A stretch of DNA of 64,000 bases, from contig JAUYIE010000020.1 in assembly GCA_030688365.1 (NCBI GenBank), positions 16,337 to 80,336 on the forward strand, in the 5' to 3' direction. Positions 3,608 through 64,000 of this stretch are shown piece after piece (the stretch's first letter is position 1; each line of letters starts with the position of its first letter). The position numbers were made by a program, and so were the translations under genes. The notes beneath the pieces are model-generated. The model worked only from the letters and a program-made list of their open reading frames with translations. It had not been told where the DNA came from and did no database searches. Source of the DNA: a bacterium. Lineage in GTDB: Bacteria > Patescibacteriota > Patescibacteriia > JACQRZ01.

Positions 3608-4150
3608 AGGTAACGCTTCAGCGACATCGTCCCATATGTTAGTTAGCAAGGTTTGTACTTCTTGTTCTTCTTTGCTGAGTTCTGGTGTATTTTTATTTTC
3701 AGCTGATTTTGAAAAGGGATAGGTTCCATCGCCGAATGATCTAAGTGAAAAGGTTATCTCATCTTTTTTGCAAAAAGATTTTAACGGCGGTGACTACTTG
3801 GGGTTCAATCATTTCCCAATATATATTCTCTCCTAAAAGTGCTTTTTCTTCTTCTGTTTGTTCAAGACTATTTTTTTCGCGATTAGTCCATTGTTCTTGT
3901 CGTTGTTTGATAATCTTTTTTCGCAAGATTGCATATTGTGATTCCATTAGTATGTCTTTATAACATTCGGCATCATTCGCATATAGGGTTGTAAATTCCT
4001 CTGATTTGTTTTTTTTTAAGTTGTGTCATAAACGCATGAAGTTCATGCTCATCAGCATTTTCTAAAAGACGTACAATCTCAACGCCTTGGTTAAGGTTAT
4101 AGCCAGCTAGTATTTGTTCTGGCGTTGATTGTGTTGGTATCTCGTACATA
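3599..4150 (-). pseudogene. Fragmented reading frames downstream of tyrS (possible frameshifted hypothetical gene)
   Basis: Three contiguous minus-strand ORF fragments in different frames. An ATG at 4150 sits 14 nt after the tyrS stop. No fragment has a recognisable domain. Sequencing error cannot be excluded. Confidence 0.25.
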
Positions 4151-8188: not shown

Positions 8189-8510
8189 ATAATGGCTAAA
8201 TTATAGAAAAAACTCTATTATTTATGAGTTTTGACATTAGACACTTGACAAAATGGGAAAAACCTGATAGTTTGTATGTAGGTTGAGAGTTATATCAGTG
8301 AACATGATGTCGACCATGTTCGGATGGAGTAAAAAAAATGAAGCATTTTTCAAATTATTTTGTTTACCGATCGGGACGTGTTTTATGTTCAATTGGTAAA
8401 AATTCTGGAGGCTAACGGTAATGGGTTAATCTCCTAAAAAAAGGTCTGACAGATCACAGAATACCATTAATATGGTAAATCTATGGCTCTCGTCGGACCT
8501 CTTTTCTTTT

Positions 8511-9245
8511 CTAAATTTTCTTCAAGGATTTTAAAGCAAGTTCAAAAACAATCAATAGAGTTTTTGCTATAGCGTCACTTTCAATGATGACAGAATTCAT
8601 TTTACCCTCAAAAGTGATGAAAGCGATTTTTTTATCTACGATCAATATCTCTGAATTGAAATGGGGATATTCAGCCGGAAGTTTAGTCGTATGAGCTATG
8701 CTTGCTGAGCCCGGCTCCCCAATAGCAAGATACTCAAGCTTTGTGTTATTTCTTTTAATTGCATCTTTGAATGGTTGCGTATCTTCTGGCGTAAGTATTT
8801 GTTTGACGGCATCAAAGTCAGTAATACCAAGAATTCTTTTTGGTTTTGAACCTTCAATATCTTCCAGTATCGCCTTAATCCCCTCTTTACCCTCAAACAT
8901 TTTTACTACCGGATGTTCACCTCGTGCCTTGAGTTTGAGTTCAGGCAAAACCCGTGATAAATCACCGATCTTTTCTTTCATCTCCTGTTGCTTACGTTCC
9001 GCATACGCGAGTAGTTTTTCAGGATCCTCTGATACGTAATATTTCTTTTTTCCTTTTAAAACACTGGACATCAATCCACGCTTGGTGAGGATCTCAATAG
9101 CAACATATGTCGCTTGTCGAGAAAGCTTCGTGAGCTTGGTCAGGTCAATCACTGTCCCTGGTCCATGCTCAAGGGATGCCGTGTAGGTATTGATTTCGCT
9201 ATCTACAAAGCCCAGTGAGTGCAAAATAGAAGTAATGTGTTGCAT
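8511..9245 (-). CDS. TrmB-like winged-HTH transcriptional regulator
   Basis: The N-terminal 80 aa resemble TrmB-family HTH domains (LTKLSRQATYVAIEILTKRGL). It is paralogous in architecture to the 9436..10299 protein. Confidence 0.5.
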   Translation of the reverse strand: MQHITSILHSLGFVDSEINTYTASLEHGPGTVIDLTKLTKLSRQATYVAIEILTKRGLMSSVLKGKKKYYVSEDPEKLLAYAERKQQEMKEKIGDLSRVLPELKLKARGEHPVVKMFEGKEGIKAILEDIEGSKPKRILGITDFDAVKQILTPEDTQPFKDAIKRNNTKLEYLAIGEPGSASIAHTTKLPAEYPHFNSEILIVDKKIAFITFEGKMNSVIIESDAIAKTLLIVFELALKSLKKI

Positions 9246-9347
9246 AAGAGGGATATATAATACTTATGACTGCGAATATTGTACCATAGTATACCCACAT
9301 TGTTTACTTTTGACAATGGACGCCCTTGGCCGTATCATAAGGGGCAT

Positions 9348-9424
9348 GCGCGCATAGCTCAGCCGGTTAGAGCAGAGATCTTATAAGTCTCAGGTCGGTG
9401 GTTCGAGTCCACCTGCGCGCACCA
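9348..9424 (+). tRNA. tRNA-Ile, anticodon UAU
   Basis: Manual cloverleaf. Acceptor GCGCGCA/TGCGCGC. D-stem GCTC/GAGC. Anticodon stem GAGAT/GTCTC with loop CTTATAA. T-stem GGTGG/CCACC. Discriminator A and an encoded CCA. Confidence 0.8.
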
Positions 9425-9435
9425 GAGAAAGTCTT

Positions 9436-10299
9436 CTATATTATTGAGGGCTTTTTTGATTCAATCTCGTCCCAGATTCCTTTGAAAAGATGTCGCATAC
9501 TATCTGCAATGGTCTTGTCGTATAGTTCAATAAGATAGAAAGGGTGTTGGCGGGTATTTACAAATACTACATAATCACCATTAACCCATGTTGATGACTG
9601 AAAATTTGCACCTTTTTTCCAAAACAGCAAGTTTCTTCGGTTATAATCACGCGGTTTCATTATTTTTGTTTCAAATTCGGATTCATTTGTGAGCATATTT
9701 AGAGATACATTCTGCGAGAAAGGTTGTTTCCATTGCCAGTCAATCCATTTTACGTATTCTGTTGCAAAGGTATGATCTTGAAAACCCCAGAATATCCCAT
9801 CTCTTTCAAGTAAACTCTCACTCCATATTGGCAATCTTGAATATAAATAATTTTCTAGCTGTTCTTCGGAGATAAAAATGAGCTTTGGGATGTGATATGG
9901 TGCGTCCTTCGTTGCCTCCTGAAGTTGGGTAATTGCTTGTGTGATAAGGTTTTTTTGAATATCAAGTTTTTCTTCCTCTTGTTTAGTGAGGTTAGCAAGA
10001 TCTTGGAGCGGTAGTGCAACCAAATATGTCTTAGTACTCCCCAAATCCTCGGCAATTATGCCTTTTTTGATCAAATCAGAGGCGACGCTATATACCGTGG
10101 TACGGTTTATACCTGTTTCCTTGGCTATCTGAGTAGGTGTCGTCTTGCCAGCATGTAGTATGGCCAAATAAATTTTGGCCTCTTTATCACTAAAACCCAG
10201 TTGTTTGAGTATTTCTTGTGGCATATTTGAGTATATAATAGTATGTTGTTGGAATACTGTCAACAATATATCCTTTATGTCATAATATTTTTTATACAA
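9436..10299 (-). CDS. TrmB-like winged-HTH transcriptional regulator (paralog)
   Basis: N-terminal motif ILKQLGFSDKEAKIYLAILHAGKTTPTQIAKETGINRTTVYSVASDLIKKGII is a typical TrmB-family HTH. Confidence 0.55.
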   Translation of the reverse strand: MYKKYYDIKDILLTVFQQHTIIYSNMPQEILKQLGFSDKEAKIYLAILHAGKTTPTQIAKETGINRTTVYSVASDLIKKGIIAEDLGSTKTYLVALPLQDLANLTKQEEEKLDIQKNLITQAITQLQEATKDAPYHIPKLIFISEEQLENYLYSRLPIWSESLLERDGIFWGFQDHTFATEYVKWIDWQWKQPFSQNVSLNMLTNESEFETKIMKPRDYNRRNLLFWKKGANFQSSTWVNGDYVVFVNTRQHPFYLIELYDKTIADSMRHLFKGIWDEIESKKPSII

Positions 10300-10405
10300 A
10301 AAGGAAATATTGGTCTAAAAACTGTTGGAAGACTATTGACAATCTGTTGGATTCGTGGTATACTTCTCTTTGTTGAGTTAGTTGAAAACAAAAATAATAT
10401 TATAT

Positions 10406-10423
10406 ATGTTCCACGTGGAACAT
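10406..10423. promoter_or_regulatory. parS-like perfect palindrome, site 1 (ATGTTCCACGTGGAACAT)
   Basis: Read directly from the sequence. It lies 16 nt upstream of the zinc-ribbon gene start, overlapping the promoter/RBS region. Confidence 0.6.
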
Positions 10424-10439
10424 TAAAGGAGAAATCGAG

Positions 10440-10673
10440 ATGAGTAATAGTAATCAAGTACAGTATTGTAAGGCGTGCTTGCGCACGCGGGATACTAATT
10501 TCTTTAGCATCGGTTTGTTCATCATATGTGATGAATGTGTTAATCGGTATTATAAAAGAAAAACTTGTCCTAAATGTCTTTGTACTAGCTTTAAGCTAAG
10601 AGCTTTTTGGCACGTGGAGTGTGCCAATTGTGGCGAGGTATTTTTACAGTATAAAAATAAAAACGAAAAATGA
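10440..10673 (+). CDS. Cys4 double zinc-ribbon small protein (77 aa)
   Basis: Four CxxC pairs (CKAC, CDEC, CPKC, CANC). RBS AAAGGAG upstream. Confidence 0.5.
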   Translation: MSNSNQVQYCKACLRTRDTNFFSIGLFIICDECVNRYYKRKTCPKCLCTSFKLRAFWHVECANCGEVFLQYKNKNEK

Positions 10674-10749
10674 TTCAGGGTAAACGAAGGTATCTTATTA
10701 CAAGATACCTTCTAATTTTCCTTATAATTCCGAGATCAGACCTCTCAAC

Positions 10750-10767
10750 ATGTTCCACGTGGAACAT
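10750..10767. promoter_or_regulatory. parS-like palindrome, site 2
   Basis: ATGTTCCACGTGGAACAT. First of three phased copies in the convergent intergenic region. Confidence 0.6.
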
Positions 10768-10792
10768 TTTGCATACACCCTAACCCCAAATA

Positions 10793-10810
10793 ATGTTCCA
10801 CGTGGAACAT
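10793..10810. promoter_or_regulatory. parS-like palindrome, site 3
   Basis: AATGTTCCACGTGGAACATT, a 20-bp perfect palindrome. It is 43 bp from site 2. Confidence 0.6.
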
Positions 10811-10837
10811 TTTGGTAACATATCGCGTGACTCGGAA

Positions 10838-10855
10838 ATGTTCCACGTGGAACAT
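10838..10855. promoter_or_regulatory. parS-like palindrome, site 4
   Basis: AATGTTCCACGTGGAACATT. It is 45 bp from site 3. Confidence 0.6.
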
Positions 10856-10912
10856 TTTGAGGATATAAAGTACAAAAAACCAAATAAAAATAAGGATTCG
10901 TGTTTAGAATCC

Positions 10913-11403
10913 TCACTCTCTTTGTGTTATGTGAGTAGATAAATCTATCTCTGTGGTTGTTTTAGTATTCATTGGCGCTAAGTTCAACCATTTGAGCACC
11001 GCAAGTGATCGCGGATTCATTTGGTAAGCCTTTTCTGCGCAGTCTGTGGCACGAACAACCATACCAAGCTCCCAATAAATGTTTGCACAAACAAGAAATG
11101 CATCAGCGTTATCCGGATAGTTTTTAATGTATTCCGTCATCCATGATAGGGCATCATTGAAAGATTCTATCTGTTCATAGGATATAGCTAACCTATAAAG
11201 AGCGATTTCGTGTGTCGGATTACAGTCTAGTATTTGTTTATAACACTTTATTGCTTCTTGAAATCCTTTTATAAACTCTGTGGATCCTTTTTTGTATTCA
11301 TAAGCCTTTAAAGTAGCTTGATATGCCACATTCACGAGTTCTTCCTCATCTACATAAATTGTAAAGAACCATTCCTTGATACTTTCGTACATTTTGTACC
11401 TCC
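10913..11403 (-). CDS. TPR-repeat protein
   Basis: TPR-like helical repeats. The start was re-set to the ATG at 11403 (MYESIKEW), preceded by AGGAGG. The longer tabulated N-terminus only translates the palindromes (NVPRGT). Confidence 0.55.
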
Positions 11404-11462
11404 TCGACTTGTAATATAGATATATAATCAGTATACGCCACAAAAGAGAGGACAGCCAAAAA

Positions 11463-11480
11463 ATGTTCCACGTGGAACAT
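11463..11480. promoter_or_regulatory. parS-like palindrome, site 5
   Basis: AATGTTCCACGTGGAACATT. It sits in the promoter region of the 10913..11403 TPR gene. Confidence 0.6.
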
Positions 11481-11505
11481 TTTGGACACAGTTCAGCCAC
11501 AAATA

Positions 11506-11523
11506 ATGTTCCACGTGGAACAT
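11506..11523. promoter_or_regulatory. parS-like palindrome, site 6
   Basis: AATGTTCCACGTGGAACATT. It is 43 bp from site 5. Confidence 0.6.
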
Positions 11524-11600
11524 TCTGTGAATAAATTTCCAAAAAAATAAGCATTTTTAATAAAATGCCTATATTTCTGATTGATTTTCCTAAAAACATT

Positions 11601-11628
11601 ATTAATTGTTCCACGTGGAACAATTAAT
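11601..11628. promoter_or_regulatory. parS-like palindrome, site 7 (28-bp perfect palindrome ATTAATTGTTCCACGTGGAACAATTAAT)
   Basis: It overlaps the stop codon of the 11624..12178 TPR gene. Confidence 0.6.
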
Positions 11629-12178
11629 TCGGGCAAAATGTTTCTAAAAGTCTTGCCGCTAAATTCCCATCAATTCTTTTTGCTATATTAAGTGTTTTTT
11701 GCACCAATAAAGAGTCTTCATACTGCTGAAAGCTTTCATTTTGCATTAGTTTTGAATAGCAGTCAGCAATTAAAATTAATGCTGGTACTGATTTCGCATT
11801 GATAGAAATAGCATGAATCAGATCCAAGATGGCTTTAGAATAATCAGCTCGTGAATGGAACACAACTGCTCGTAATATGTATCCCTTCTCGCTGTTGGGA
11901 TAGGCAAGGATATACTGGCTTAGATCAGAAATAGCTAAATTTACATCTCCAATTGTTAGAAATGCCGTTGCCCTAAGACAAAGTGCTCTTGGATTATTTG
12001 GTTCATCCTCTAAAACTGAACTTACAAAATAAATCGCTTTTTTCATCTGATAAGCATATTCTATATCAATATTTTGTTCTGACCTAGGCAGGTTACATGC
12101 TTTTTTTATCGCTCTATTTGCGAGTTTACACGAAATTTTATTTTTTATGTTAAAGAACCATCTTCTAAGTTTTTTCAT
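11624..12178 (-). CDS. TPR-repeat protein
   Basis: 184 aa with repeated TPR-like helix pairs (ALCLRATAFLTIGDVNLAISDLSQYILAYPNSEKGYILRAVVFH...). Confidence 0.6.
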   Translation of the reverse strand: MKKLRRWFFNIKNKISCKLANRAIKKACNLPRSEQNIDIEYAYQMKKAIYFVSSVLEDEPNNPRALCLRATAFLTIGDVNLAISDLSQYILAYPNSEKGYILRAVVFHSRADYSKAILDLIHAISINAKSVPALILIADCYSKLMQNESFQQYEDSLLVQKTLNIAKRIDGNLAARLLETFCPN

Positions 12179-12240
12179 TATTGCATCTCCTTTTTGAAAT
12201 AATATATTTCCATCCTAGCATAAAAATCATTTCTTGTAAA

Positions 12241-12258
12241 TTGTTCCACGTGGAACAA
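12241..12258. promoter_or_regulatory. parS-like palindrome, site 8 (TTGTTCCACGTGGAACAA)
   Basis: It sits in the divergent promoter region between the TPR gene (minus strand) and the methyltransferase gene (plus strand). Confidence 0.6.
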
Positions 12259-12318
12259 TATGCGTCGCACAATATTTTGGTAAAGACCACATTGACACGC
12301 ATTAGATAAAGGGCGGAG

Positions 12319-12957
12319 TTGAAATCTATGAAAAGAGTGCAAGAGTCATGTCTCTTGTGCTATACTATCTATAAGGATTTCAAATCTATTTTATTATATA
12401 TGTTGGGAAAAGCACCGGCGGGGGGTACCTCCTTGATTGATCCGCGAACCGTTGTGGCTCGTCTGGATATTCATGATGGCGATATTGTGGCTGATCTTGG
12501 GTGTGGGGGAGGAGGGCATTTCATCAATTCTTTATCAACAGCCGTGGGAGCAAAAGGCAAGGTTTTTGCTTTAGATATACAGAAAAATGTTTTAAAAGTA
12601 GTAGAAGCAAAGATGAAATTGTTTAATCTTTCAAATGTTACAACAGTATGGTCTGACCTTGAAAGAGATGGATCAGCAGGAATTATTTCGGGATCATGCA
12701 CTATTGCACTTTTATTAAATGTTTTGTTTCAAAACTCCCGATATGAAAAGATTGTACAAGAGTCATTGCGTATGATAATGTCGGGTGGTCGATTGGTGGT
12801 TATTGATTGGAAACCGAGCGGATCGCCGTTTGGCCCTCCGTCTGATCGTCGTATTTCTCCACAAAAAGTCAAGGAAATTGCGCAATCCCTTGGTATTACT
12901 CTTTTGGAAGAGTTTGAAGCGGGACCGTATCACTATGCGCTTGTATTCAAGAAATAA
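12319..12957 (+). CDS. Class I SAM-dependent methyltransferase
   Basis: Motif I VADLGCGGGGHF and motif II-like VFALD. The true start may be the internal MLGKAPAGG. Confidence 0.7.
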   Translation: MKSMKRVQESCLLCYTIYKDFKSILLYMLGKAPAGGTSLIDPRTVVARLDIHDGDIVADLGCGGGGHFINSLSTAVGAKGKVFALDIQKNVLKVVEAKMKLFNLSNVTTVWSDLERDGSAGIISGSCTIALLLNVLFQNSRYEKIVQESLRMIMSGGRLVVIDWKPSGSPFGPPSDRRISPQKVKEIAQSLGITLLEEFEAGPYHYALVFKK

Positions 12958-46366: not shown

Positions 46367-49300
46367 TTATTTTTTAGTGTTTGTTTTTCTTTGGATATAT
46401 ACACCACTTGCAAGAAAAATAATGCCAAAGAGCGATACGACACCGATTTGGGTGAGGGGTATTGGGGCGTTCGTGCCAGTGAGGGAGAGCGTTGTATTAC
46501 TGAGTGTTGATGTGTTTGTATTTGACGTTGTTATATTTGTGTTTTCTGAAACTACGAGATCATCAGTGGTGCGTGGAAGTATCCTGTATCCACTGCTTGT
46601 TTGACTAACCACCCCAGTTACCTGCACAATATCACCACTCGCGATTTTTATATGTGGTATACCAGTGGATGCTTTGACATATATTCGGGCTTCATCATCG
46701 CCATCATCAATATATATACTTGGCCATTGCACTTTGACTACGTCGCCTTGTAGACGAACCAGACTGCCTTCGTACTCTTCATTGACTTGGCTGGCAGTTA
46801 TATCATGCGGTGTGGGTGGTTGGCCGTGAGAAATAAGTGTGATATCACTTTTTTGTGAAACTTTGAGACGCTCTTCATTACTGATTTGAGACAGGACACC
46901 GGCTATTTTTATCGTATCACCGCGCGCGAGCGTGGGTATTTGATTTTTTGAAACATACACCTGTACGCCTGATCCTGCCAAGTAAAAAATATTCGCACCC
47001 AGTACGCCTGGTACTGATGCAACAACACCTTCGGTAACGATTGATGTGTTTAACGGAAAATCGCGTATCTGATCCAACGCTACTGTCAATCGTGATGAGG
47101 TATTTGCAGAGGATGTTGAATTTTTTGTACTTGTTGCGTGTGTCGTACTTGTGGACGTAGTGCCTTGCTGGTTTGAAAGAGTCACGGACAAATCAATGAC
47201 ATTTTCTTGTCCGGGAGTGACCATCTTTGACCAAACAAAATCGTTGTTGTCAGTGCGATTGAGACTTTGTGCTTCAGGTGCAGTTTCATAAAAAACAGTA
47301 TCAATCACATTTCCGTGTGTGTCGTATAGCACGACAGTGTCCGCGATATTGCGGAGTTGTATTTTTTCTTGTGCGGTGGTCAAGAGTAGATATCCATTCG
47401 CTGGTATCATTGTTGACGTGGAATATGTGTATGATTTTTTGCCCAACTGAAATGCCACACGCCATCTCGATATATCAACGGGCTCGTCAGAGGTGTTGAC
47501 AAGTTCAATAAATTCATCTGTATCTTTTCCTTTTGGGTTGGGAAATATTTCATTGATGACGATGGACGATATGATATTTATACTTTCTTGTGGAATCGGT
47601 GCATCCTTGATTTCGATTTCGTCAGTGGTGTCAGAAGGTGCAATGTTTTGTATCGATTCCTTGATGGTGATTGTCTTAGTGGTGATTTTTTTATTGGTAC
47701 CGTCAGTGACGGTCAGGCTGATTTTGTATCGGCCTGCTTTATCATAATGATGACTCAACGCGATTCCTTCACCTTTTTGTCCATCGCCAAAATCCCATGT
47801 ATATGTCAAAGGATCTTGTTCGGGGTCAATGGTATCTGATGCATCACATGGTATTTCTTCTAACACGGTACCGGTGGTGGGGACTTGCAAATCAAGGTCA
47901 GGTGGTTGATTTGCTATTGTCTTTATATTTTCTCCTCCTGGTGTTGGTGTTGTGGTCCATCCTGTCTGACCGTCGTTAAATAATACATACGATTGTCCTT
48001 GTATTGCTTTTTCTGTGTACGTAAAAACGGCATTTGGTTTTTCTCCATTAGGTTGATACAGTTTGATGCCGTCACCACCGGTGTTTTTGAGTGCAAGCCC
48101 GGTAACAGTACGCGATAATACAAAATAATGATGTGCAGGAATGATGGTTGATGTGAGTTTTTTTGCGTTGACGATGTATTTGCGCCCTGCATTGTTTATC
48201 ACCTCCCAATTCAAAAGATCAATGTCACTATCACCGCCGTTGTATAGTTCAATGAATTCGCCTTTGGTATCGGGACCGATAGGGTTTGGTAATAGTTCGG
48301 TGATACTGATGTTTTTGATAAAAGGTAATGTGTCGCCACCAGTCGGACTATCAGGGTCAATGATAACGTTTGAACTTCCTTTGGTGGGGTGTGCTGTGAT
48401 TTGAAAGTCAAAAGTGTTGTTGTATGTATTGGCACCATCTTTTACGCGAGCTACTGAAAACGGATCTTTGGCGACTGGTGCGTTATTTTGATCATTGTCA
48501 TCTGCCCAGTTTCCATATGCGACCTCATCAATAATATCGCCGGTCGGGCTTTTGAGGATGATAACATCGCCGGGGTTGTTTAGTTTTCCTTTTGGATTTT
48601 CTACGACAAAAAATCGTGTATTTGCGTTTGAGCCGATCGCACCTGCAAGTATTGTTTTACCTTTTGAGCCGTCTTCTATTGTCCAACCAGCAAGATCTAT
48701 GTTTTTGATGAGCGGATTGTATAACTCTATCCATTCTGTGTCGTCGTCTGTCGGGTCGGATACAAACTCGTTGATTAAAAGATCGCCTCTTGAAAATGTT
48801 GGTGGTGAGGTAGACGGTGTTTCGTTATGTGGTGGTGGAGTTTCATTCGATGGTGGCGGTGTTTCGTCGTTTGGAGGATCTTGTTCATCAGGTGGCGGTG
48901 TGTCATCGTCTAGTGGGGGAACATCATCATCGGGAGGGGTAGATTCTGATTCGTCGGGGATAGTACTAGCGTCATTGACCGCACCGATTGTGTTGCTCGT
49001 TGAGTGTTCTATCCAGTTTGTGTTTGTATAATCATTTATTATTGCGTCTATTCTTTCTAGTGAGTGAGTTGGCGCCGCCGGGATATATGTGAATTGTTCA
49101 ACAATCGTACCAGTATTGTCTTTTAGCGCGATAGATTCACCAGATTCATTGAGTGTTGACCACGCACTGTCTATTAGCGTGCCGGTAAATGCGGGATAGT
49201 CGGATGCTGTGTTTATGGCAACATCAGCAATCACTGCGTATTCACCCGGTTCAATGATCATGTCGCCTTGATATGCGTTAAGGCCATGATTGGTGTCATT

Positions 49301-49528
49301 TTCAAAAAATTTCCATCCAGTCATATCCACAGGTTCCGGTCCTTTATTGTAGATTTCAACCCATTCATGATCAGAGTTTTCTGATGCGCCGATTTCGTTG
49401 ATGACCATATCCGCACTTATCGCATGGGCGGGAGGTGGAAGGATCGGCGCGAATGAAATTAAAAAAAGAACGGTGATAACTAAAGAACGCGACATAGAAA
49501 AAATAACAAGAATAAAAATTAGTTTCAT
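46367..49528 (-). CDS. Giant surface protein with signal peptide, four or more lamin-tail (LTD) domains, a PKD domain, a Pro/Asp/Thr-rich linker and a C-terminal TM anchor
   Basis: LTD signatures (LLINEFVSDPTDDDTEWIELYNP, VINEIGASENSDHEWVEIYN, INEIFPNPKGKDTDEFIELVN, ITELLPNPIGPDTKGEFIELYN). PKD signature (YTWDFGDGQKGEG...YKISLTVTDG). The start was set to MKLIFIL. Confidence 0.75.
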   Translation of the reverse strand: MKLIFILVIFSMSRSLVITVLFLISFAPILPPPAHAISADMVINEIGASENSDHEWVEIYNKGPEPVDMTGWKFFENDTNHGLNAYQGDMIIEPGEYAVIADVAINTASDYPAFTGTLIDSAWSTLNESGESIALKDNTGTIVEQFTYIPAAPTHSLERIDAIINDYTNTNWIEHSTSNTIGAVNDASTIPDESESTPPDDDVPPLDDDTPPPDEQDPPNDETPPPSNETPPPHNETPSTSPPTFSRGDLLINEFVSDPTDDDTEWIELYNPLIKNIDLAGWTIEDGSKGKTILAGAIGSNANTRFFVVENPKGKLNNPGDVIILKSPTGDIIDEVAYGNWADDNDQNNAPVAKDPFSVARVKDGANTYNNTFDFQITAHPTKGSSNVIIDPDSPTGGDTLPFIKNISITELLPNPIGPDTKGEFIELYNGGDSDIDLLNWEVINNAGRKYIVNAKKLTSTIIPAHHYFVLSRTVTGLALKNTGGDGIKLYQPNGEKPNAVFTYTEKAIQGQSYVLFNDGQTGWTTTPTPGGENIKTIANQPPDLDLQVPTTGTVLEEIPCDASDTIDPEQDPLTYTWDFGDGQKGEGIALSHHYDKAGRYKISLTVTDGTNKKITTKTITIKESIQNIAPSDTTDEIEIKDAPIPQESINIISSIVINEIFPNPKGKDTDEFIELVNTSDEPVDISRWRVAFQLGKKSYTYSTSTMIPANGYLLLTTAQEKIQLRNIADTVVLYDTHGNVIDTVFYETAPEAQSLNRTDNNDFVWSKMVTPGQENVIDLSVTLSNQQGTTSTSTTHATSTKNSTSSANTSSRLTVALDQIRDFPLNTSIVTEGVVASVPGVLGANIFYLAGSGVQVYVSKNQIPTLARGDTIKIAGVLSQISNEERLKVSQKSDITLISHGQPPTPHDITASQVNEEYEGSLVRLQGDVVKVQWPSIYIDDGDDEARIYVKASTGIPHIKIASGDIVQVTGVVSQTSSGYRILPRTTDDLVVSENTNITTSNTNTSTLSNTTLSLTGTNAPIPLTQIGVVSLFGIIFLASGVYIQRKTNTKK

Positions 49529-49647
49529 TATATCAAAGACAGTGATTTTTTGCAGGCCTAACCGATGTTGTCTATTCACACCTTGACAGTATTAAAGGGG
49601 TGTGATAGTCTATTTTTTGTATATTATAGATTCAGGAGGAATCGCAA

Positions 49648-53730: not shown

Positions 53731-55029
53731 ATGATGAAAGATGAATTATTGGGCATATTGAATGAGTGGAACTTTTGGAATCAAAAGCGTGATGTTGGGA
53801 TTAAACGCCCTTTTTATCTTGAAAAAATGAAGGATTTTAGCCAGACAGGGCAAGTGGTGGTGCTTTCAGGGGCGCGTCGTTCCGGAAAATCTACTTTAAT
53901 GCTCCAATATACGGCGGATCTCATTGCTGGTGGGTTGGATGCAAAAAATACCTTGTATATTAATTTTGAAGATTCTCGTTTTTCCGGTGAGCTTACCTTG
54001 GCGTTATTGCAACAGATATATGATGTATATAGAGCAGAACTGGCACCGGATACTCCGAATATTTTTATTGACGAAATACAACTTATTCCCGGGTGGGAGC
54101 GTTTTGTACGAGCGATACATGAACGTAAGGAAGCGACGCTGTTTGTGTCAGGATCCAATGCTCAAATGTTGAGCGATGAATTTGGTGCTTCGCTGACAGG
54201 ACGGCATCTTATGATAGAAGTTTTCCCTCTTGATTTTTCTGAATTTTTAGCATTTCATGATATATATCTTAAGAATAATCTTGAGATTGTTTCCAAAAAA
54301 GGCATTATACAGAAATTTTTTGAAGAATATCTGTTATTTGGCGGATTTCCTAAGGTAGTTCTTTCGCAAGAAAAACAAGAAATACTTCGTCAGTATTTTG
54401 ATGATGTGCTCGCACGCGATATCGTAGGTCGCTATCATGTACGTAATACTGTCACGCTCAAGGCACTCGCTCAATACTACGAAACAAACATATCCTCCTT
54501 GATGACATACAGTAGTGTTCGTAAGTTTTTGAAGACTCCGCTTGCGACTGTGCAACGATTTTCCGGATACTATACCTATGCGTATTTGATTTTCTTTGTA
54601 AAAAAGTTTGCCTATTCTCTTAAGGAACAAGAAGTGAATCCGCGCAAAGTGTATAGTATTGATACTGGCTTACGTAATGCGGTGAGTGGGGGGATGATAC
54701 CTGATAAAGGAAAGTTGTATGAGAATTGTGTGTACCTTGAGCTGTTGCGGAAACATGGCAATAATGTTTTTTATTGGAGTGATAAAGTGGAATGCGATTT
54801 TGTGGTTAAAGAATCCGATGGTATGCACGCCTATCAAGTCGTATATGCTATGTCGCATGCGAGCACCCGAGAGCGGGAATTTGCCGGCCTTGCCTCAGCG
54901 CTCAAAAGTTTTGACCTTAAAGAAGGGGTCATTGTTACCGGAGAGGAAGAAGGGTTGGAAGAATATGATGGGAAGATAATACATCTTGTGCCGTTGTGGA
55001 AATGGCTGTTGGGGTTTCCTGTCTCTTGA
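53731..55029 (+). CDS. AAA+ ATPase of the COG1373 / DUF4143 type
   Basis: Walker A VVLSGARRSGKSTL. Walker B IFIDEIQ. C-terminal DUF4143-like region. Confidence 0.7.
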   Translation: MMKDELLGILNEWNFWNQKRDVGIKRPFYLEKMKDFSQTGQVVVLSGARRSGKSTLMLQYTADLIAGGLDAKNTLYINFEDSRFSGELTLALLQQIYDVYRAELAPDTPNIFIDEIQLIPGWERFVRAIHERKEATLFVSGSNAQMLSDEFGASLTGRHLMIEVFPLDFSEFLAFHDIYLKNNLEIVSKKGIIQKFFEEYLLFGGFPKVVLSQEKQEILRQYFDDVLARDIVGRYHVRNTVTLKALAQYYETNISSLMTYSSVRKFLKTPLATVQRFSGYYTYAYLIFFVKKFAYSLKEQEVNPRKVYSIDTGLRNAVSGGMIPDKGKLYENCVYLELLRKHGNNVFYWSDKVECDFVVKESDGMHAYQVVYAMSHASTREREFAGLASALKSFDLKEGVIVTGEEEGLEEYDGKIIHLVPLWKWLLGFPVS

Positions 55030-55066
55030 CACATCTTTTCATATATGATACAATAATGTCATATAT

Positions 55067-55702
55067 ATGAAAAGTAAGAAAAATCTCTTGGAACAATTAA
55101 AAACACTTCCGCACTTCAATAAAGATGTGATTTTTCAGCTGGGTACACATCTTGGACTTGAAGATTCCACTATTGATACCTATATCAGCCGATTTTTAAA
55201 AAATAGAGAGATCTATCGGCTCAAAAACGGACTGTATATATCCGCTGATTTTTTTGAAAAGAACAGGAACGATATTTCGTATTCGTTTTATGTGGCCAAT
55301 ATCTTGCGTACGCCATCATATGTCAGTTCGTGGACGGCGTTGCAGTATTTCAATCTCACGACAGAGGCGATACATGGGATTACTTGCGTGACGCCAAAAG
55401 TAACACGAGACTATCAGACACAGGTGGAAAATTTCAGTTATCAGTCTATAGACAAAAAACTGTTTTCCGGATTTTCGTTGGGAACGGGGACATTTGATTT
55501 TTTTATTGCCTCTCCCGCAAAAGCTTTGTTTGACTTGCTGTATTTCAAGACGTATCAGTTTCGCGGTGTGACATTAAAACAGATACCGACATTGATTGAA
55601 GAATTACGCATTGACTTTGATGAGATGGACAAGAAAGAACAGAAAATTTTTTATAAAATGATTAAAAAGAGGATTTTGAAGTGGACGAAAAAGAGAAGGT
55701 AA
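55067..55702 (+). CDS. AbiEi-antitoxin-like wHTH protein (orphan)
   Basis: The N-terminus (LLEQLKTLPHFNKDVIFQLG...IYRLKNGLYI) resembles the AbiEi N-terminal domain (I.R..RG.Y). No co-directional AbiEii partner. Confidence 0.4.
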   Translation: MKSKKNLLEQLKTLPHFNKDVIFQLGTHLGLEDSTIDTYISRFLKNREIYRLKNGLYISADFFEKNRNDISYSFYVANILRTPSYVSSWTALQYFNLTTEAIHGITCVTPKVTRDYQTQVENFSYQSIDKKLFSGFSLGTGTFDFFIASPAKALFDLLYFKTYQFRGVTLKQIPTLIEELRIDFDEMDKKEQKIFYKMIKKRILKWTKKRR

Positions 55703-55770
55703 AAGCAATATGTCTGCGTTGTTATCTTGCGAGTTGGATGATTTGCTGAAGTAGCTCTATATATCCCTCC

Positions 55771-56772
55771 TCAAATCTCCCTCTCAAACTCTTTGAATCT
55801 TGATCCTGTGTATGTTTTCGCGAGTTTACGATATTTTTCGTACAGTGTGTTGTCTGAAATCGTACTTGGATCAAGCGTTGGAGCATTTTTGAAATAAAAA
55901 GGATCATCCCTATCTTCCATCCAGTATATGATTTGTGCTACCAAATCATCTTTGTGGTGCGCCAGAATACCTTCTTTTGTCTCATCTGTGGTCACAATGC
56001 CCAGCTCTAGTAGTTTGTTATAAAATCTTTCAGCCAGTTCATCTCCCATTTCATATGATTTGTCTACGGCAATAGCAAGATCAAATAGCCGGACATGATC
56101 AAATTCCCATTGCCAATCTTTGATGCCATCAATTGTTCCATTGCCATACATCGCTTCAAACTCCACTTGCAATCGCAACGCCTTCATGACTAATTTTGAT
56201 CGTAGACCTTGCTCTCCCTTTGAATAACTATACCACCAGTTGCCTTTGTACTCTGTGGGGCGGATAATTTTATTTTTTAGATCGTTTATGGCCTCTGGGG
56301 TTGCGATGATTTCTTCGTCTAGAATCAATACTTCATTTAACACAAAGTCGCGAGATAAAAAATATTCTGATAATGATTCTTTGCGAATACCGTGGCCTTG
56401 CGCGCTGTCATTGGACATATATCGTTGCTCAAGCATGTCTATCACAGCGGGATTTGGGTGAGCGTTTATGTCTGTAATGACAACAATATCAACATCACGC
56501 GGTTTTAAAACTTTGTTACCCAACAGCCGAAGTGCAACATTTCGCGCGACACCTCCCGCGATACCATAGCCCTTGGGTAGCTCTATTGGTAATTTTTCTT
56601 CAAGGGGTATATGTACGAGGGTACGCATGTTTTCTGTGCCATGTTCTTTGTCGTCAATGGGGATGCGCTGTATGGTATATACCAAGTCATGTTTATCCAA
56701 TATTTCTTTAACCCCATCGCTTAATTCAGGGGAAACAAATGTTTCGGTTGGGATTGTTTCAAATTTTTCCAT
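55771..56772 (-). CDS. Nucleotidyltransferase-fold protein related to class II tRNA nucleotidyltransferase / poly(A) polymerase head domain (divergent)
   Basis: YGIAGGVARNVALRLLGNKVLKPRDVDIVV parallels the GGxVRDxLLG...PKDxDxxT motif of class II CCA enzymes, with Asn in place of Asp. It is co-directional and adjacent to cca. Confidence 0.5.
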   Translation of the reverse strand: MEKFETIPTETFVSPELSDGVKEILDKHDLVYTIQRIPIDDKEHGTENMRTLVHIPLEEKLPIELPKGYGIAGGVARNVALRLLGNKVLKPRDVDIVVITDINAHPNPAVIDMLEQRYMSNDSAQGHGIRKESLSEYFLSRDFVLNEVLILDEEIIATPEAINDLKNKIIRPTEYKGNWWYSYSKGEQGLRSKLVMKALRLQVEFEAMYGNGTIDGIKDWQWEFDHVRLFDLAIAVDKSYEMGDELAERFYNKLLELGIVTTDETKEGILAHHKDDLVAQIIYWMEDRDDPFYFKNAPTLDPSTISDNTLYEKYRKLAKTYTGSRFKEFEREI

Positions 56773-56800
56773 AGCGATACATCAGTAAATAGTGTTTTTT

Positions 56801-58033
56801 CTACTGCAACGATTGCACATACTTCATCGCTTCCTCTTTGGTAGAAAGTGAGCGCGAAAGTGCGAGGGTTTCTACCTGTTCCAAGATTTCCTTGAACTTC
56901 GGTCCCGGTTTTATGCCAAGACTATGGAGATCGGTGCCGGTGATTAAGGGGAGTTTTGGCAAGGGATTTGTCTGGAGATCTTCTATGATTTTTTGAAAAC
57001 CTATTGTCTCCGGCGAGCCAGTACCAAATCTCACTTTCGCAAGTGCGAGGATTGCTTGTTGATTATTTTTTACTGCAAGTCGGCGCAAGGCAATCTCGTC
57101 CAGTGAAGACAACGCCTCAATATTTTTTACAATATCGTTAATATCAGTAATCTCTTTGTTGGAAAGTTTTATTGTTTTGCCGAGTGTCGTCACCTCTTGG
57201 TCAGCCATGATAATCGCCCACGTAGTCATGGCTGGCGCATCGGACGTGGATTCCAGTCGGGTGAGTTGTTCCTTCATTTCCGGGTTGATATCTAACCATG
57301 GCAATAAAAGTGGTAACAGGCCACATTCTTTCATAAGTTGAAGACCATGAAGGGGCATGGAAGTCGCAAGCATTTTTCTGATTTCATTGGTTGAACGTTC
57401 TTGTTTCAGGGTTAGTGCGTTATCGTGGTGCGTTTTTATTGCGTCATAGAGCGACGGATCAATATCAAAATCAAACTGGCAGGCAAATCGTATCGCACGA
57501 ATCAGCCATAATGCATCTCCCGCTTTTGTCGGGTCATTCGTAGCACGAATAATGCCCGCTTTGATATCATCCATTCCGCCCACGAGATCAATGACCTCTT
57601 TGGTAAGCGGATCAATCAAGAGCGCGTTCATGGTGAAATCGCGCCGTGCTACATCTTCCTCTTTGGTGGATGAAAATGCTCCGCCATCCCCCCGATATGT
57701 AGAGACCTCGTAGCAGTCCCCATTCAATAAAACTCTGACCATGCCGTATTCAGCGGCTTGCATCACTGTTCTGGGAAACAGTTTGGCGACTTGTTCTGGT
57801 AGCGCGTTTGTCGTCATATCAAAATCTTTTGGTTCCACGCCAAGAACCATGTCGCGGACGCAACCGCCAGCGAGATATGCCTCATACCCTGAATCGCGGA
57901 GATTCTGCGCCACATTCCGCGCGCCTTCAAAAAATTTATTTTCCGGCAGTGTGAGTGCCTCTTTATTAGCTATTTGTTCGTTGCTTGCGTCCCCAAGACG
58001 AAATTGAGAGCGTTCCATGTGTTGTTCAGGCAT
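56801..58033 (-). CDS. cca: tRNA nucleotidyltransferase (CCA-adding enzyme / class II PolyA_pol family)
   Basis: LAGGCVRDMVLGVEPKDFDMTT head-domain motif, RFACQFDF, and a 410-aa body. Confidence 0.8.
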   Translation of the reverse strand: MPEQHMERSQFRLGDASNEQIANKEALTLPENKFFEGARNVAQNLRDSGYEAYLAGGCVRDMVLGVEPKDFDMTTNALPEQVAKLFPRTVMQAAEYGMVRVLLNGDCYEVSTYRGDGGAFSSTKEEDVARRDFTMNALLIDPLTKEVIDLVGGMDDIKAGIIRATNDPTKAGDALWLIRAIRFACQFDFDIDPSLYDAIKTHHDNALTLKQERSTNEIRKMLATSMPLHGLQLMKECGLLPLLLPWLDINPEMKEQLTRLESTSDAPAMTTWAIIMADQEVTTLGKTIKLSNKEITDINDIVKNIEALSSLDEIALRRLAVKNNQQAILALAKVRFGTGSPETIGFQKIIEDLQTNPLPKLPLITGTDLHSLGIKPGPKFKEILEQVETLALSRSLSTKEEAMKYVQSLQ

Positions 58034-58226
58034 AATAAAGACGGTGAAGTTATAATACTGTTTAGTATGTCATGTATTGTGAAAAAGGAAAATGAAGAAA
58101 AGAAAAAAGCCCGCTGACATTATTTGTCGCGGGGCATTTCTATAATTACGATGATAGAGTGTACACTACTTGCCTGGTATACACTCAAGCGTCGCAACGA
58201 TAGGGGAGAATATGTTTTATACTTCC

Positions 58227-58310
58227 TGTTTCATCCTTTCGGAATCATCAGCACGGATACACATCCGTGAACAGGTGGGGGAGTTTCGATTATGAAACTC
58301 CCCAAACTTG
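58227..58310 (+). ncRNA. Repeated structured element, copy 1 (conserved leader plus two hairpins)
   Basis: TGTTTCATCCTTTCGGAATCATCAG, then hairpin CACGGA-TACACA-TCCGTG, then hairpin GGGGAGTTTC-GATTAT-GAAACTCCCC. Strand is uncertain. Confidence 0.3.
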
Positions 58311-58542
58311 TTTATTCTTTGGACGTATTCCTTTCGATCCAAAGCTTTTTTTGTTCCTCCTTTCTTGCTTGTTCGAGGTTTAGAATGTCCTCTTTTAAAT
58401 TCGGAAGTGGTTTTGTTTACAGTGCACTATGAATAAACTGGTGGTTGTATATATTGTAGTGGAATAGACTTTTCATTGTGGTATAGACACCCCAAATGGA
58501 ATGGTGATATACTTTGAGTGATTTACTATTATCTATATATAT

Positions 58543-58899
58543 ATGGAAAAAGGAGGAGGATCGTTTGAAAATACGCCGGAACAGCCAAAAACAGAATTTG
58601 AAAAGGCTAAAGAAGAGGTTTCCGCAGTAGCGACAGACTGGGAATATATAAGCGAAATAGAAAAGATGTCCAGACAAGAATTATCACGAGGTGAATCACC
58701 AAAAAAAGTAGCCGACGATATTTATAGAATTTGCAGACAAGAATCTATAGAAATAGAGAAAGAGATTCATCTGCTAGAAACGAAACTTGAGGATAAGCAA
58801 TTTGACGGAGTCCGCGAACCTCTTGTTGAAGTCCTTGCTAAGATACAAAATGAGATAAATAAACTTGAAAGAGATGAACGAAATGGATCTAATCCGTAA
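58543..58899 (+). CDS. Hypothetical coiled-coil protein (118 aa)
   Basis: ORF followed by a strong bidirectional terminator. Confidence 0.4.
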   Translation: MEKGGGSFENTPEQPKTEFEKAKEEVSAVATDWEYISEIEKMSRQELSRGESPKKVADDIYRICRQESIEIEKEIHLLETKLEDKQFDGVREPLVEVLAKIQNEINKLERDERNGSNP

Positions 58900-58931
58900 T
58901 TGATTTTAAAGATTCAATAATTTTTATATAA

Positions 58932-58960
58932 AAATGGTCCCTTTGGGGGCCATTTATGTT
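58932..58960. terminator. Bidirectional rho-independent terminator
   Basis: AATGGTCCC-TTTG-GGGGCCATTT hairpin flanked by an A-run and T-runs, between convergent genes. Confidence 0.55.
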
Positions 58961-58971
58961 GGGTTGTTTTT

Positions 58972-59436
58972 CTAATAACTTTTTCCGGATTGTAGTACTA
59001 TTTGTCTGATAAACAACATGCCGGTGGCAGTATCTCCGGCGTATAGACGTGCTTCAATACTGTTTAGCAGACTTCTGATGTCAAGTCCGTACCAGTATTG
59101 GGCTTTGTCGAACACATCTTTGCCAGAACAATTGCATTGTTCTTGAAATTGGAACAACTTTGCGGAAATTTTGAACTTTGAATGGTATTCGTGCATCAAA
59201 CTCGCTATGTCTTTTCCCGCTATCCGATGGTTAGTGAGTACTGACAAAATCTGATCGGCTTCATTACTGGTGTATGTTGAGGGTTGTGTGTCAATAGGAA
59301 TCCCCTCAATTACCAGGCCATCTTGTGAAGACATAATAGTTATCTTCCCAAAAGACGTGAATACCGTTGCTTTTTTCTTCTCATAATCTATGCACGGCGC
59401 TCTTTCCTTTGCGCCATCTTGTTGTAATGAACACAT
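58972..59436 (-). CDS. Hypothetical protein (154 aa)
   Basis: ORF with no recognisable motif. Confidence 0.4.
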   Translation of the reverse strand: MCSLQQDGAKERAPCIDYEKKKATVFTSFGKITIMSSQDGLVIEGIPIDTQPSTYTSNEADQILSVLTNHRIAGKDIASLMHEYHSKFKISAKLFQFQEQCNCSGKDVFDKAQYWYGLDIRSLLNSIEARLYAGDTATGMLFIRQIVLQSGKSY

Positions 59437-59574
59437 TTTTTTTCTCCTTTTTTAATAACAAAGGTTTACATTAACCTTTATGGCAATCACTTTGGCATAT
59501 TTGACCGGTTTTGTCAAGAATATCTGGGTAAAAGAAAAAAGCTCAAACAGTGCAATTGACTGTTCGAGCTTAAA

Positions 59575-59955
59575 TTAATCGGTGTTCTGCCTCTGTGCAT
59601 CCGTGCCAAGGTCTTCAAGTTCCAGAACCATACGCTTCACTCTCTTGAAACCAAGAAAGCGGTACATACGGTCTTTTACTCTCCAGTCGCAGAGCTTTGG
59701 GTCGGTGACCGTCTCTGCTTCTGAATACAGTGGCCTTAGACCAAGATCGCATAAGCGGGCGAGTACGCTATACGGTGCGACGACAATGCAGTCGTTGTAA
59801 CCGCCTTCGCGTATCCGCCGTACGATTGTCTCCGCGCTATTCCAGACACGATGGTCTTCGAAGACTTTGACATCTTCTCCGAACATTCTTTTCAACGCGC
59901 CCATTTGGACGCCATTCATGCTGTGCTGTGATACCCAGCATATTCTTTTTGGCAT
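59575..59955 (-). CDS. Hypothetical protein (126 aa)
   Basis: The start was set to MPKRICWV, preceded by a strong RBS (AAAGGAGGTATT-ATG). GC content is markedly higher than in the core genome. Confidence 0.5.
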   Translation of the reverse strand: MPKRICWVSQHSMNGVQMGALKRMFGEDVKVFEDHRVWNSAETIVRRIREGGYNDCIVVAPYSVLARLCDLGLRPLYSEAETVTDPKLCDWRVKDRMYRFLGFKRVKRMVLELEDLGTDAQRQNTD

Positions 59956-60055
59956 AATACCTCCTTTACTCTGTGCCACAGAGTATTTATTGCTACAGTC
60001 GAGCATGCATCACTTGCCTGACACATACTCAAATCTAGCAACAAATGTGGAATCT

Positions 60056-60134
60056 TATTTCGTCCTTTCGGACTCATCAGTGGAAGTACACACTTCCAGA
60101 TAAGAGAGATCATTTTAATTGATCTCAATTTTTT
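60056..60134 (+). ncRNA. Repeated structured element, copy 2
   Basis: TATTTCGTCCTTTCGGACTCATCAG, then hairpin TGGAAG-TACACA-CTTCCA, then hairpin GAGATCA-TTTTAAT-TGATCTC, then a T-run. Confidence 0.3.
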
Positions 60135-60217
60135 TGCCCTGTAAAAAAGAACTATGATTTGGCAAGCGTGATACCTACCGATGGGAGCCGTTTTGATTTT
60201 GGCTCCGCGTGTAAAAA

Positions 60218-60721
60218 CTAATGGGATCCGTTCCATTTTTTAAAACCTGCAGATTCGGGTATTCTTCGTTCGAAGACGTTTTCTGCAAAATTTTCTATCA
60301 GTTTTTGGACACTGGCAATCTCTACTTCTGTAAAAGTTGGCTTAGTGCCTTCTTTCTCGAAGTCGAGAGTAAATCCACGAGAGGCATTCCAGCCACCCCA
60401 AGAAGGACTTCGGGGAAAATCGTTTTCTGGAGTGCCCCAAAATTCCCGGTCATTAGTGTCGACTAAAGGGCCGACGTCCTCATGCGAAAAACTCCATCCA
60501 TCAGCCTGCATGAGAGCTGATAAACTGGCAATCAATGTGACAATATCATCATATTTTTTGGGTCGTGTGAATCCAAGAGAAATGGTGACAGTCTGTTGAT
60601 TGGCCATGCACTCATCTTCGCCCCAATTTGGTTCAGATGAATCACCCCAAAAGGTAATTCGTGTTGAGTTTTGGGGATAAGACTCTGTTTCCGAAAAATC
60701 AATTCTCAATGGTAGGTACAT
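60218..60721 (-). CDS. Hypothetical protein (167 aa), higher-GC island
   Basis: ORF with Trp-rich segments (SPSWGGWNASRGF). No motif. Confidence 0.45.
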   Translation of the reverse strand: MYLPLRIDFSETESYPQNSTRITFWGDSSEPNWGEDECMANQQTVTISLGFTRPKKYDDIVTLIASLSALMQADGWSFSHEDVGPLVDTNDREFWGTPENDFPRSPSWGGWNASRGFTLDFEKEGTKPTFTEVEIASVQKLIENFAENVFERRIPESAGFKKWNGSH

Positions 60722-61029
60722 TATTGTACCTCCTTTGAGGAAGAAAATAATTCAGAAATTTTCTCAACCAGCTGGGCCTGAGTAATTTTTTCTGCGTTCT
60801 TTTTCGTAGACCCGCAAAGTAAATACTCATTCCCATTCTGAAATGCGTCCTGCATTTCAGCCTCCCCAACACTCCTCCTTGTGGGGTGGTCTCCTGCATG
60901 AAAAAATCTTTCCCAGAACCCGCTCATGCCGCGGATGCTGGAAATCTGGAACGTACGACCATCGGGCGTCGTCCATTCCAAATTCTTCTGCGTGGCCACT
61001 AGGTAGGCCAGCACCATGTTTGCATTCAT
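60721..61029 (-). CDS. Hypothetical protein (102 aa), higher-GC island
   Basis: ORF ATGA-coupled to the downstream gene. RBS GGAGGACAAAAAATG. Confidence 0.45.
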   Translation of the reverse strand: MNANMVLAYLVATQKNLEWTTPDGRTFQISSIRGMSGFWERFFHAGDHPTRRSVGEAEMQDAFQNGNEYLLCGSTKKNAEKITQAQLVEKISELFSSSKEVQ

Positions 61030-62365
61030 TTTTTGTCCTCCTACGACAAAAGATAAAATATTACTTTTAAATTTACTCTTGATTTAAGATAATTCTGTTT
61101 GGGTTGTAACACCCCGACACAATGACCTTAAGAAAGAGGGGAAACATTTGTTTCCCATTCTAACCCTTTTAATGTACGATGATGAATCGCGAATCACCTA
61201 TTACCTCCTTTCGCGTGCTATAATATTTTTTAATGAGAGAGTCGTCAGTCATCATTATTGGCTCATCGTTGATTGAATCAACTAGGCTTATAGTGATCGA
61301 CTTCTCTCCCAGCGATTGTTTGGTTCGCCAGCACCTTCGATATTCTTATATCTATCCATGTGTTGTTGTGTAAACAACTCATTTCAAAATACTCTCCAAA
61401 AATCTCGAACACCTTCATGTTTACGGGAAGCTTGAGAGACTTTCTGTAAACAATCCTCATCTCGCAGTAGGGTGGTTAAGGACACCGTCCTTTCTTTATA
61501 TCTTTTGTGATTTCAAAATCTCTAACCCTCGATTTTGTTCTATTTGGGTCCTCTGGTAATGAGATCCAGATGGAGTACTACTACTGAGCACTTTTTAACA
61601 AGGTTACCTTCCCTTGAACATACTACATACCAACTTCGACGGTTATATTCATGTTAAATATATGACCAATCGCCACACTTATATCGTCTTACGCAGGTAA
61701 GCGGGAAAACGCTGTGTAAAACAGAACTTTTAATTCATTTGAGATACTGTTCTCAAACATTCTTGCATATGTGTCCGTAATTGATCTTGTTGTAACAGTG
61801 CTGTGCTTGTGGCCGCTCTGTCGCTGTCAATTGTGGCATTTCAAGAATTTAGAATCATCGTTTCTACCCTAGTGTGATCCCTGTCAGATCACGCTGTGTT
61901 GGTTTACCCCCGAATCGCTAAGATCCTGCAGGTTTCTTTTCAACCCGGCCCGCGAAGGGTAAGGTCAGCCAACGTTCCGGTGTCAGAACCATCTTCACGG
62001 GATGAGCGGTCAACTCTCGGGTGACGGGCGTTCATGCTTTGCCACTGCTTTTGGGTGAGACAATTTCATCGTTTACACATGACGATTATTTTTGTGTTCA
62101 CTAAAACTTTCTGTACAGTATCATGAAGTAAGTTGTTTTTTGTTAAGTATACGCGATATCAGAAATACTATCTCGCAGACTCTAACCTCTCAGGGTGGCT
62201 TAGTGTAATAACACCCACTAACTGGTTGCCCTGTTTGAGATCGTTCGCTCCGATCTCGTTTTTTTGGCGTCTTTCCATGTAGCAGCTTTCGGTTGTGCCG
62301 GAACCGGGCTGTCGCGCGCATGCGTCATATGTACCTCCTTTCGCATGAGCAATCTTTTCCCGCTA

Positions 62366-62680: not shown

Positions 62681-62681
62681 A

Positions 62682-63980: not shown

Positions 63981-64000
63981 ACCTCCTAATTTGCCAATGA

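Follow-up and report, generated by a model that had tools for sequence, protein, structure and literature searches.

A compact array of eight parS-type palindromes as the probable chromosomal centromere of a Patescibacteria genome

We analysed a stretch of 64,000 nucleotides (the window) from a bacterium of the Patescibacteriota, lineage JACQRZ01 (GenBank assembly GCA_030688365.1, contig JAUYIE010000020.1), and detected in it an array of eight copies of one palindromic 16-mer, TGTTCCACGTGGAACA. We suggest that the eight palindromes are most probably chromosomal parS, the loading sites of a ParB protein of the Spo0J type, and together the centromere of this Patescibacteria chromosome. The assignment is proposed because the 16-mer has exactly the sequence of proven parS sites, occurs together with parAB in other phyla, forms one cluster in the ~80 kb analysed and is conserved at the same locus in relatives. 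We infer that this genome encodes a ParB, that this ParB binds at the array and that the cluster lies near the replication origin. The original prediction for this DNA had already read the palindromes as a parS array marking a centromere, and the identity to proven sites, the parAB linkage and the conservation at orthologous loci give this reading good support.

The exact-match search returned eight copies of TGTTCCACGTGGAACA between positions 10407 and 12257, while the expected count was 0.00 in 100 dinucleotide-preserving shuffles. Allowing up to three mismatches across the window added a single match, at 19782, which is unrelated. The window was extended with flanking Logan contigs (SRR13727534; 9.6 kb on the left and 6.7 kb on the right) to a reconstruction of 80.4 kb, and no further copy was found in these ~80 kb, all eight being confined to 1.85 kb. 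The sites, all of them intergenic (8/8), are given below without strand, with the length of the extended palindrome as read from the sequence.

10407..10422, candidate parS site 1: 18-bp palindrome within the zinc-ribbon gene's 5' leader, 3 nt ahead of the ribosome-binding site (RBS)
10751..10766, candidate parS site 2: 18-bp palindrome in the stretch that separates the terminators of the two convergent genes
10794..10809, candidate parS site 3: 20-bp palindrome, 43 bp from site 2
10839..10854, candidate parS site 4: 22-bp palindrome, 45 bp from site 3
11464..11479, candidate parS site 5: 24-bp palindrome upstream of TPR1, abutting a weak -35-like hexamer
11507..11522, candidate parS site 6: 20-bp palindrome, 43 bp from site 5
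11607..11622, candidate parS site 7: 28-bp extended palindrome (11601-11628) that spans the stop codon of TPR2
12242..12257, candidate parS site 8: 20-bp palindrome in the divergent spacer between TPR2 and the methyltransferase gene

The centres of consecutive sites, 1 through 8, are 344, 43, 45, 625, 43, 100 and 635 bp apart, and sites 5-7 fall between TPR2 and TPR1. Sites 2-3 with their spacer (10747-10823) are 82% identical to sites 5-6 with theirs (11460-11536), a duplicated module of 77 nt. Judging from this module and from the two paralogous TPR genes (22% identity), local duplication appears to have enlarged the array. Much of the original description was borne out: eight perfect copies in ~1.9 kb, palindromes of 18-28 bp, site 7 at a stop codon, site 8 in a divergent spacer, and the artefactual 'NVPRGT' open reading frames (ORFs) that the repeat generates. 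Its coordinates were each one too low. Site 1 is indeed close to the RBS of the zinc-ribbon gene, but it does not overlap the best -35 hexamer (10336-10341), as had been claimed, and sites 2-4 are in the convergent region as described, at a place beyond the terminators of both genes.

The full-text literature search for the 16-mer led to papers on ParABS systems. TGTTCCACGTGGAACA is the sequence of parS2/parS3 of P. aeruginosa, termed there a 'perfect palindrome' (PMC4368675, Table 1), and also that of the P. putida parS (PMC7022226, review), and it is one base off the Myxococcus xanthus consensus TGTTCCACGTGGAACG, which is represented by 22 sites in that species (PMC7022226). With parS defined as tGTTNCACGTGAAACa or a validated variant of it, the array 16-mer agrees with the Pseudomonas sites at 16 of 16 positions, so that its sequence is that of an experimentally established ParB-binding site elsewhere; the 15/16 match to the Bacillus-type parS, put forward in the original prediction, was an understatement.

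The same sequence was then considered across other genomes. Scanning one genome per species for WTGTTCCACGTGGAACAW gave at least 120 8-kb bins with the palindrome, and the matches listed come from Bacteroidota, Acidobacteriota, Nitrospirota, Planctomycetota and Verrucomicrobiota as well as from Sphingomonadaceae, Clostridia, Bdellovibrionota and two genomes of the Candidate Phyla Radiation (CPR). By tblastn with Spo0J, a ParB gene was detected in 27 of the 120 palindrome bins listed vs one of the 80 controls (Fisher p = 5e-6); in the palindrome bins it usually has a ParA Walker box next to it and is 0.1-1.5 kb from the site. Strict ParB motifs were detected in 28 of these 120 bins. The control loci (n=80, 1.1 Mb in total) were metagenome contigs anchored on ValRS, with ValRS relatives at 40-46% identity, and contained no parS-like sites. 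By this comparison the 16-mer is a parAB-linked sequence. Among the 120 loci listed the array described here has the highest density, followed by five sites in 3.6 kb and four sites in 1.4 kb.

The spacing of 43-45 bp, which the original prediction had taken as phasing that suggests cooperative binding, is present in the array but is not special to this locus: among the matches listed, 10 of the 49 neighbour spacings in other genomes are also 36-55 bp. Close pairs 36-55 bp apart were observed in unrelated phyla (L018, L020, L029, L033, L043, L050, L073, L088 and L119), and L043, a Chitinophaga genome, has five sites in 3.6 kb. The scans of viral contigs gave scattered pairs and single sites, one of which (L210) adjoins parAB, and none was informative for CPR. 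A contig from IMG/VR with 58% G+C (L283) encodes at 8229-9434 a protein with a ParB-like N-terminal domain, and the 16-mer is situated in the 5' end of this ORF.

Conservation in CPR relatives was analysed at syntenic loci reached via homologues of TrmB1, a TrmB-like gene that together with valS forms the left boundary of the array region, the right boundary being a UbiE-like methyltransferase gene. The original prediction had proposed a comparison of orthologous loci as a check, and the relatives keep the sites. A Logan contig (L227, SRR34141493; TrmB1 76% and methyltransferase 69% identical) has three exact sites, and a 'Patescibacteria group bacterium' (GCA_964357385.1, L229/L230/L231; TrmB1 70%, methyltransferase 65%) has four, in both cases in the same interval between the methyltransferase and TrmB1-valS (10225-12399 in the window, 6477-8271 in L227 and 2484-3962 in L229). 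The flanking proteins are 54-76% identical between the window and these relatives. The genes among the sites are unrelated across the three genomes: the window has the zinc-ribbon, TPR1, TPR2 and TrmB2 genes, L227 has genes for an HD hydrolase and for a secreted protein of 138 aa, and L229 has a doubtful ORF of 152 aa. The sites are therefore the conserved element of the interval. The methyltransferase-side flank of site 8 is identical at 14/14 positions to that of the L227 site at 6611, so these two are orthologous and represent an anchor site.

Two more distant CPR genomes have the same palindrome. A Kerfeldbacteria metagenome-assembled genome (MAG; L076) carries four sites in 1.4 kb, between tRNAs and small genes, and a Patescibacteria MAG (L016) carries three in 1.3 kb, one of which (4091-4106) is inside the valS coding sequence, where it encodes ...KNVPRGTL..., and thus fits a DNA-level binding site and not an RNA hairpin or a mobile element. 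The core is invariant (16/16) in 22 copies from five CPR genomes and the flanks are simply A/T-rich; together with persistence of the sites independent of the surrounding genes, this argues for strong selection as DNA. The interval between methyltransferase and TrmB1 was also seen to be a hot spot of gene turnover in which parS persists with roughly one site per intergenic spacer, and a relative from ENA (ERZ27297709) has a MacB/ABC transporter pair in it.

On its sequence, its parAB linkage elsewhere, its clustering (eight copies in 1.85 kb within 80 kb, in keeping with an element of few copies in one region) and its conservation at the orthologous locus (three sites in L227, four in L229-L231), the array would be classified as a parS cluster of the Pseudomonas/Myxococcus sequence subtype. 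According to established ParABS biology, a ParB dimer would bind each 16-bp site, and binding of cytidine triphosphate (CTP) would close ParB into a clamp that slides outward. Eight loading sites in 1.85 kb would then produce one compact, high-occupancy partition complex, which ParA would segregate and which would recruit and load SMC.

Several observations weigh against this assignment. ParB, ParA and DnaA were not detected in the window by motif or domain, in agreement with the statement of the original prediction that no parB is visible there, and parB and parA are also absent from the 16 kb of flanking DNA recovered (~80 kb in all). Neither dnaA nor dnaN nor a cluster of DnaA boxes was found in the ~80 kb, DnaA boxes being at chance (23 found vs 22.7 expected). 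GC skew is positive across the whole 80.4 kb with no sign change. The literature search found no paper on ParB or parS in CPR/Patescibacteria. In addition, 20 of 22 CPR sites fall between genes and bracket individual ones, an arrangement that would also suit the operator of a transcription factor. The origin proximity claimed in the original prediction accordingly found no backing in the ~80 kb, which is without dnaA, DnaA-box enrichment or a turn of the GC skew; the sole hints towards it are the position of gyrA (~17 kb from the array, ~5 kb outside the window on its left) and an SMC gene that a contig from a related genome carries.

The genes and terminators in and next to the array are as follows.

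8511..9245, minus strand, TrmB-like winged helix-turn-helix gene 1 (TrmB1): conserved left boundary with valS, 70-76% identical in L227 and L229
9348-9424, tRNA-Ile: between TrmB1 and TrmB2, anticodon TAT (UAU)
9436..10224, minus strand, TrmB-like winged helix-turn-helix gene 2 (TrmB2): not in the methyltransferase-TrmB1 interval of L227 and L229
10440..10673, plus strand, zinc-ribbon/RING-like gene: 77 aa, four CxxC pairs, embedded in the array
10686..10712, plus strand, intrinsic terminator of the zinc-ribbon gene: followed by sites 2-4
10886..10920, minus strand, intrinsic terminator of TPR1: precedes sites 4-2 on the minus strand
10913..11392, minus strand, TPR1: 159 aa, embedded in the array
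11624..12178, minus strand, TPR2: 184 aa, distant paralogue of TPR1 (22% identity), embedded in the array
12400..12957, plus strand, UbiE-like methyltransferase gene: right boundary of the array, conserved in the relatives L227 and L229 at 65-69% identity

A strong match to a promoter (TTGACA-17-TATACT, 10336-10364) precedes the zinc-ribbon gene, and local BLAST of its protein gave no match in L227/L229, the syntenic relatives. TPR1 is an orphan, a search among 5.8 billion proteins having recovered TPR1 alone; TPR1 and TPR2 have an N-terminal WFF motif in common. The zinc-ribbon and TPR genes look like passengers in, or insertions into, the spacers between the sites, and not like parts of the system. 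TrmB1 and TrmB2 (~245-260 aa) each represent a large family, with members in the hundreds at 45-55% identity, and their C-terminal domains have no Pfam match. In NCBI the close homologues of both carry the names of several CPR lineages, namely Patescibacteria group, Uhrbacteria and Doudnabacteria. The tRNA-Ile with anticodon UAU is of a kind uncommon in bacteria, the usual one being the CAT/lysidine type, and it seems to be conserved across the co-occurring relatives. Contigs of relatives (L228, L232 and L237) break inside what is apparently the same tRNA gene, just upstream of TrmB1.

Operators for a dimeric factor, for example one of the two adjacent TrmB-like proteins, that regulates the zinc-ribbon, TPR and methyltransferase genes would be another explanation of the palindromes, and we consider it decidedly unlikely. 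It would be in line with site 1 being in a 5' leader, sites 5 and 8 next to -35-like hexamers and one site in a divergent spacer, and with the TrmB-like genes that adjoin the array in the window, L227, L229 and the Kerfeldbacteria genome L076. However, promoter-like matches in the array region are at chance (9 found vs 9.8 expected), and the regulator and the palindrome come apart in other gene contexts: no palindrome was found within 8-10 kb of the TrmB2 homologues at 76% (L204, a different locus) and 50% (L205/L206) or of the TrmB1 homologue at 53% (L233-L236). The TrmB-like protein of L076 is ~30% identical to TrmB1/TrmB2, and the aligned helix-turn-helix differs in all three proteins, whereas the DNA site is identical; from relative to relative, too, the sites are unchanged while the supposed target genes are entirely different. 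TrmB-like genes are frequent, three of them being found in ~80 kb (the third just right of the window), so that adjacency to the array is weak evidence for an operator. The archaeal TrmB/TrmBL1 operators resemble the array in that a winged-helix dimer sits on a palindrome near promoters, but the co-occurrence of the array with TrmB-like genes fails where synteny is broken, and no TrmB motif is known to resemble the array 16-mer. It would be a remarkable coincidence if an unrelated factor needed exactly the 16-mer of proven parS. A TrmB operator was rejected on the missing co-occurrence of site and regulator at L204, L205/L206 and L233-L236, and the suggestion in the original prediction of an operator array bound by the TrmB-like proteins is disfavoured by their homologues without a palindrome within ~10 kb.

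A structural or mobile repeat, such as hairpins like those of repetitive extragenic palindromes (REP) or miniature inverted-repeat transposable elements (MITE), intrinsic terminators, or attC-like recombination sites of integron cassettes, would account for variable orphan genes between identical repeats. The embedded genes do vary between relatives, each bracketed by repeats; site 7, as the sole site of the array, also scores terminator-like, and the duplicated module of sites 2-3 and 5-6 favours a repeat as well. Such an origin of the array is nevertheless very improbable. No copy occurs beyond the 1.85-kb cluster in 80 kb, the terminator pattern is present in one of the eight sites, and each of the two convergent genes has its own terminator; sites 2-4 are placed beyond these and are therefore not required for termination. 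Neither the scanned ORFs of the window nor the genes listed for the flanking contigs showed an annotated integrase, transposase or recombinase domain. The core is 16/16 in 22 copies from five CPR genomes, and attC and REP families vary in sequence; moreover, one copy is inside the essential valS coding sequence (L016), and the same 16-mer is parAB-linked across phyla. The terminator/REP hairpin was rejected since it fits site 7 only, dispersed copies are lacking in the 80 kb and one L016 copy is in valS, and the integron-like cassette array since no recombinase was seen in these ORFs and gene lists and the core is invariant. Slightly less probable still is that the cluster is the replication origin or part of it, with the palindromes as variant DnaA boxes (TGTTCCACG resembling TTATCCACA). 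The switch of gene orientation at ~12.2 kb and the position of gyrA to the left of the window would favour an origin, but the minus-strand gene block (0.4-12.2 kb) is a local inversion with plus-strand genes on either side, and the skew, the DnaA boxes and the missing dnaA/dnaN described above speak against it. The array site matches parS at 16/16 and a DnaA box at only 6/9 positions, as read from the sequences. The oriC candidate was rejected since the ~80 kb show no DnaA-box enrichment, no skew change and no dnaA/dnaN.

A variant of the parS assignment, which we regard as unlikely, would be a 'parS island', compact and fixed in position, that is at the same time a hot spot of gene turnover, or a non-ParB protein acting on an ancestral parS. 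Fast-evolving orphan genes (TPR, zinc-ribbon, HD hydrolase and small secreted proteins) would enter the array singly, one in each spacer between the invariant sites, and might be insulated or controlled by the partition complex. More radically, the clade would be without a canonical ParB, and another protein would use the ancestral parS sequence.

If the array is a chromosomal parS centromere, it can be set beside the known ones. P. aeruginosa and P. putida have the same 16 bp and several grouped sites, four of them near oriC in P. aeruginosa. In Pseudomonas these four origin-proximal sites are accompanied by scattered imperfect ones, whereas here eight perfect sites are in 1.85 kb; in Pseudomonas both ParB and oriC have been mapped. 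Myxococcus parS sites are spread over tens of kb beside parAB. Compared with that spread the array is about tenfold denser, and no parAB was found in the ~20 kb left of it or in the ~58 kb right of it. The likeness to M. xanthus is in the many near-identical sites of one subtype in one centromere region (PMC7022226, table). The B. subtilis parS, TGTTNCACGTGAAACA, is of the same palindrome family as the array site. The B. subtilis site within spo0J presumably differs from TGTTCCACGTGGAACA at one base. In B. subtilis the parS sites are scattered through the origin-proximal chromosome region and are mostly inside genes, unlike the tightly packed, wholly intergenic (8/8) array described here.

The wider neighbourhood of the array has ArgRS, SpoU methylase, TyrRS, ValRS, TrmB1, tRNA-Ile and TrmB2 on the left, and the UbiE-like methyltransferase followed by NusA, S1, FtsH, PilB and further genes on the right. 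The gene at 46367-49579 encodes a protein of 1070 aa, probably a large surface protein, that contains four lamin-tail domains as well as PKD domains. The region from ~55000 to 64000, with ~6.7 kb beyond the window (L226), is a probable mobile or defence island. It has a higher G+C content (0.43-0.46) and negative skew, and contains genes for a MoxR-like AAA ATPase, for a vWA protein and for an AbiEii toxin, the third TrmB-like gene and several ORFs that match no family.

Taken together, the array represents an element of a known kind, unusually compact and situated in a little-studied lineage (the CPR, ultra-small and mostly uncultured episymbionts), and it leaves the understanding of ParABS systems unchanged. 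As a centromere it would mark a single region of the chromosome, which is useful for assembling and orienting CPR genomes. With eight sites in less than 2 kb, it may serve as a ready-made cis element for stable vectors in the few cultivable CPR strains. The finding suggests that the canonical ParB-parS specificity has been kept in a deep CPR lineage.

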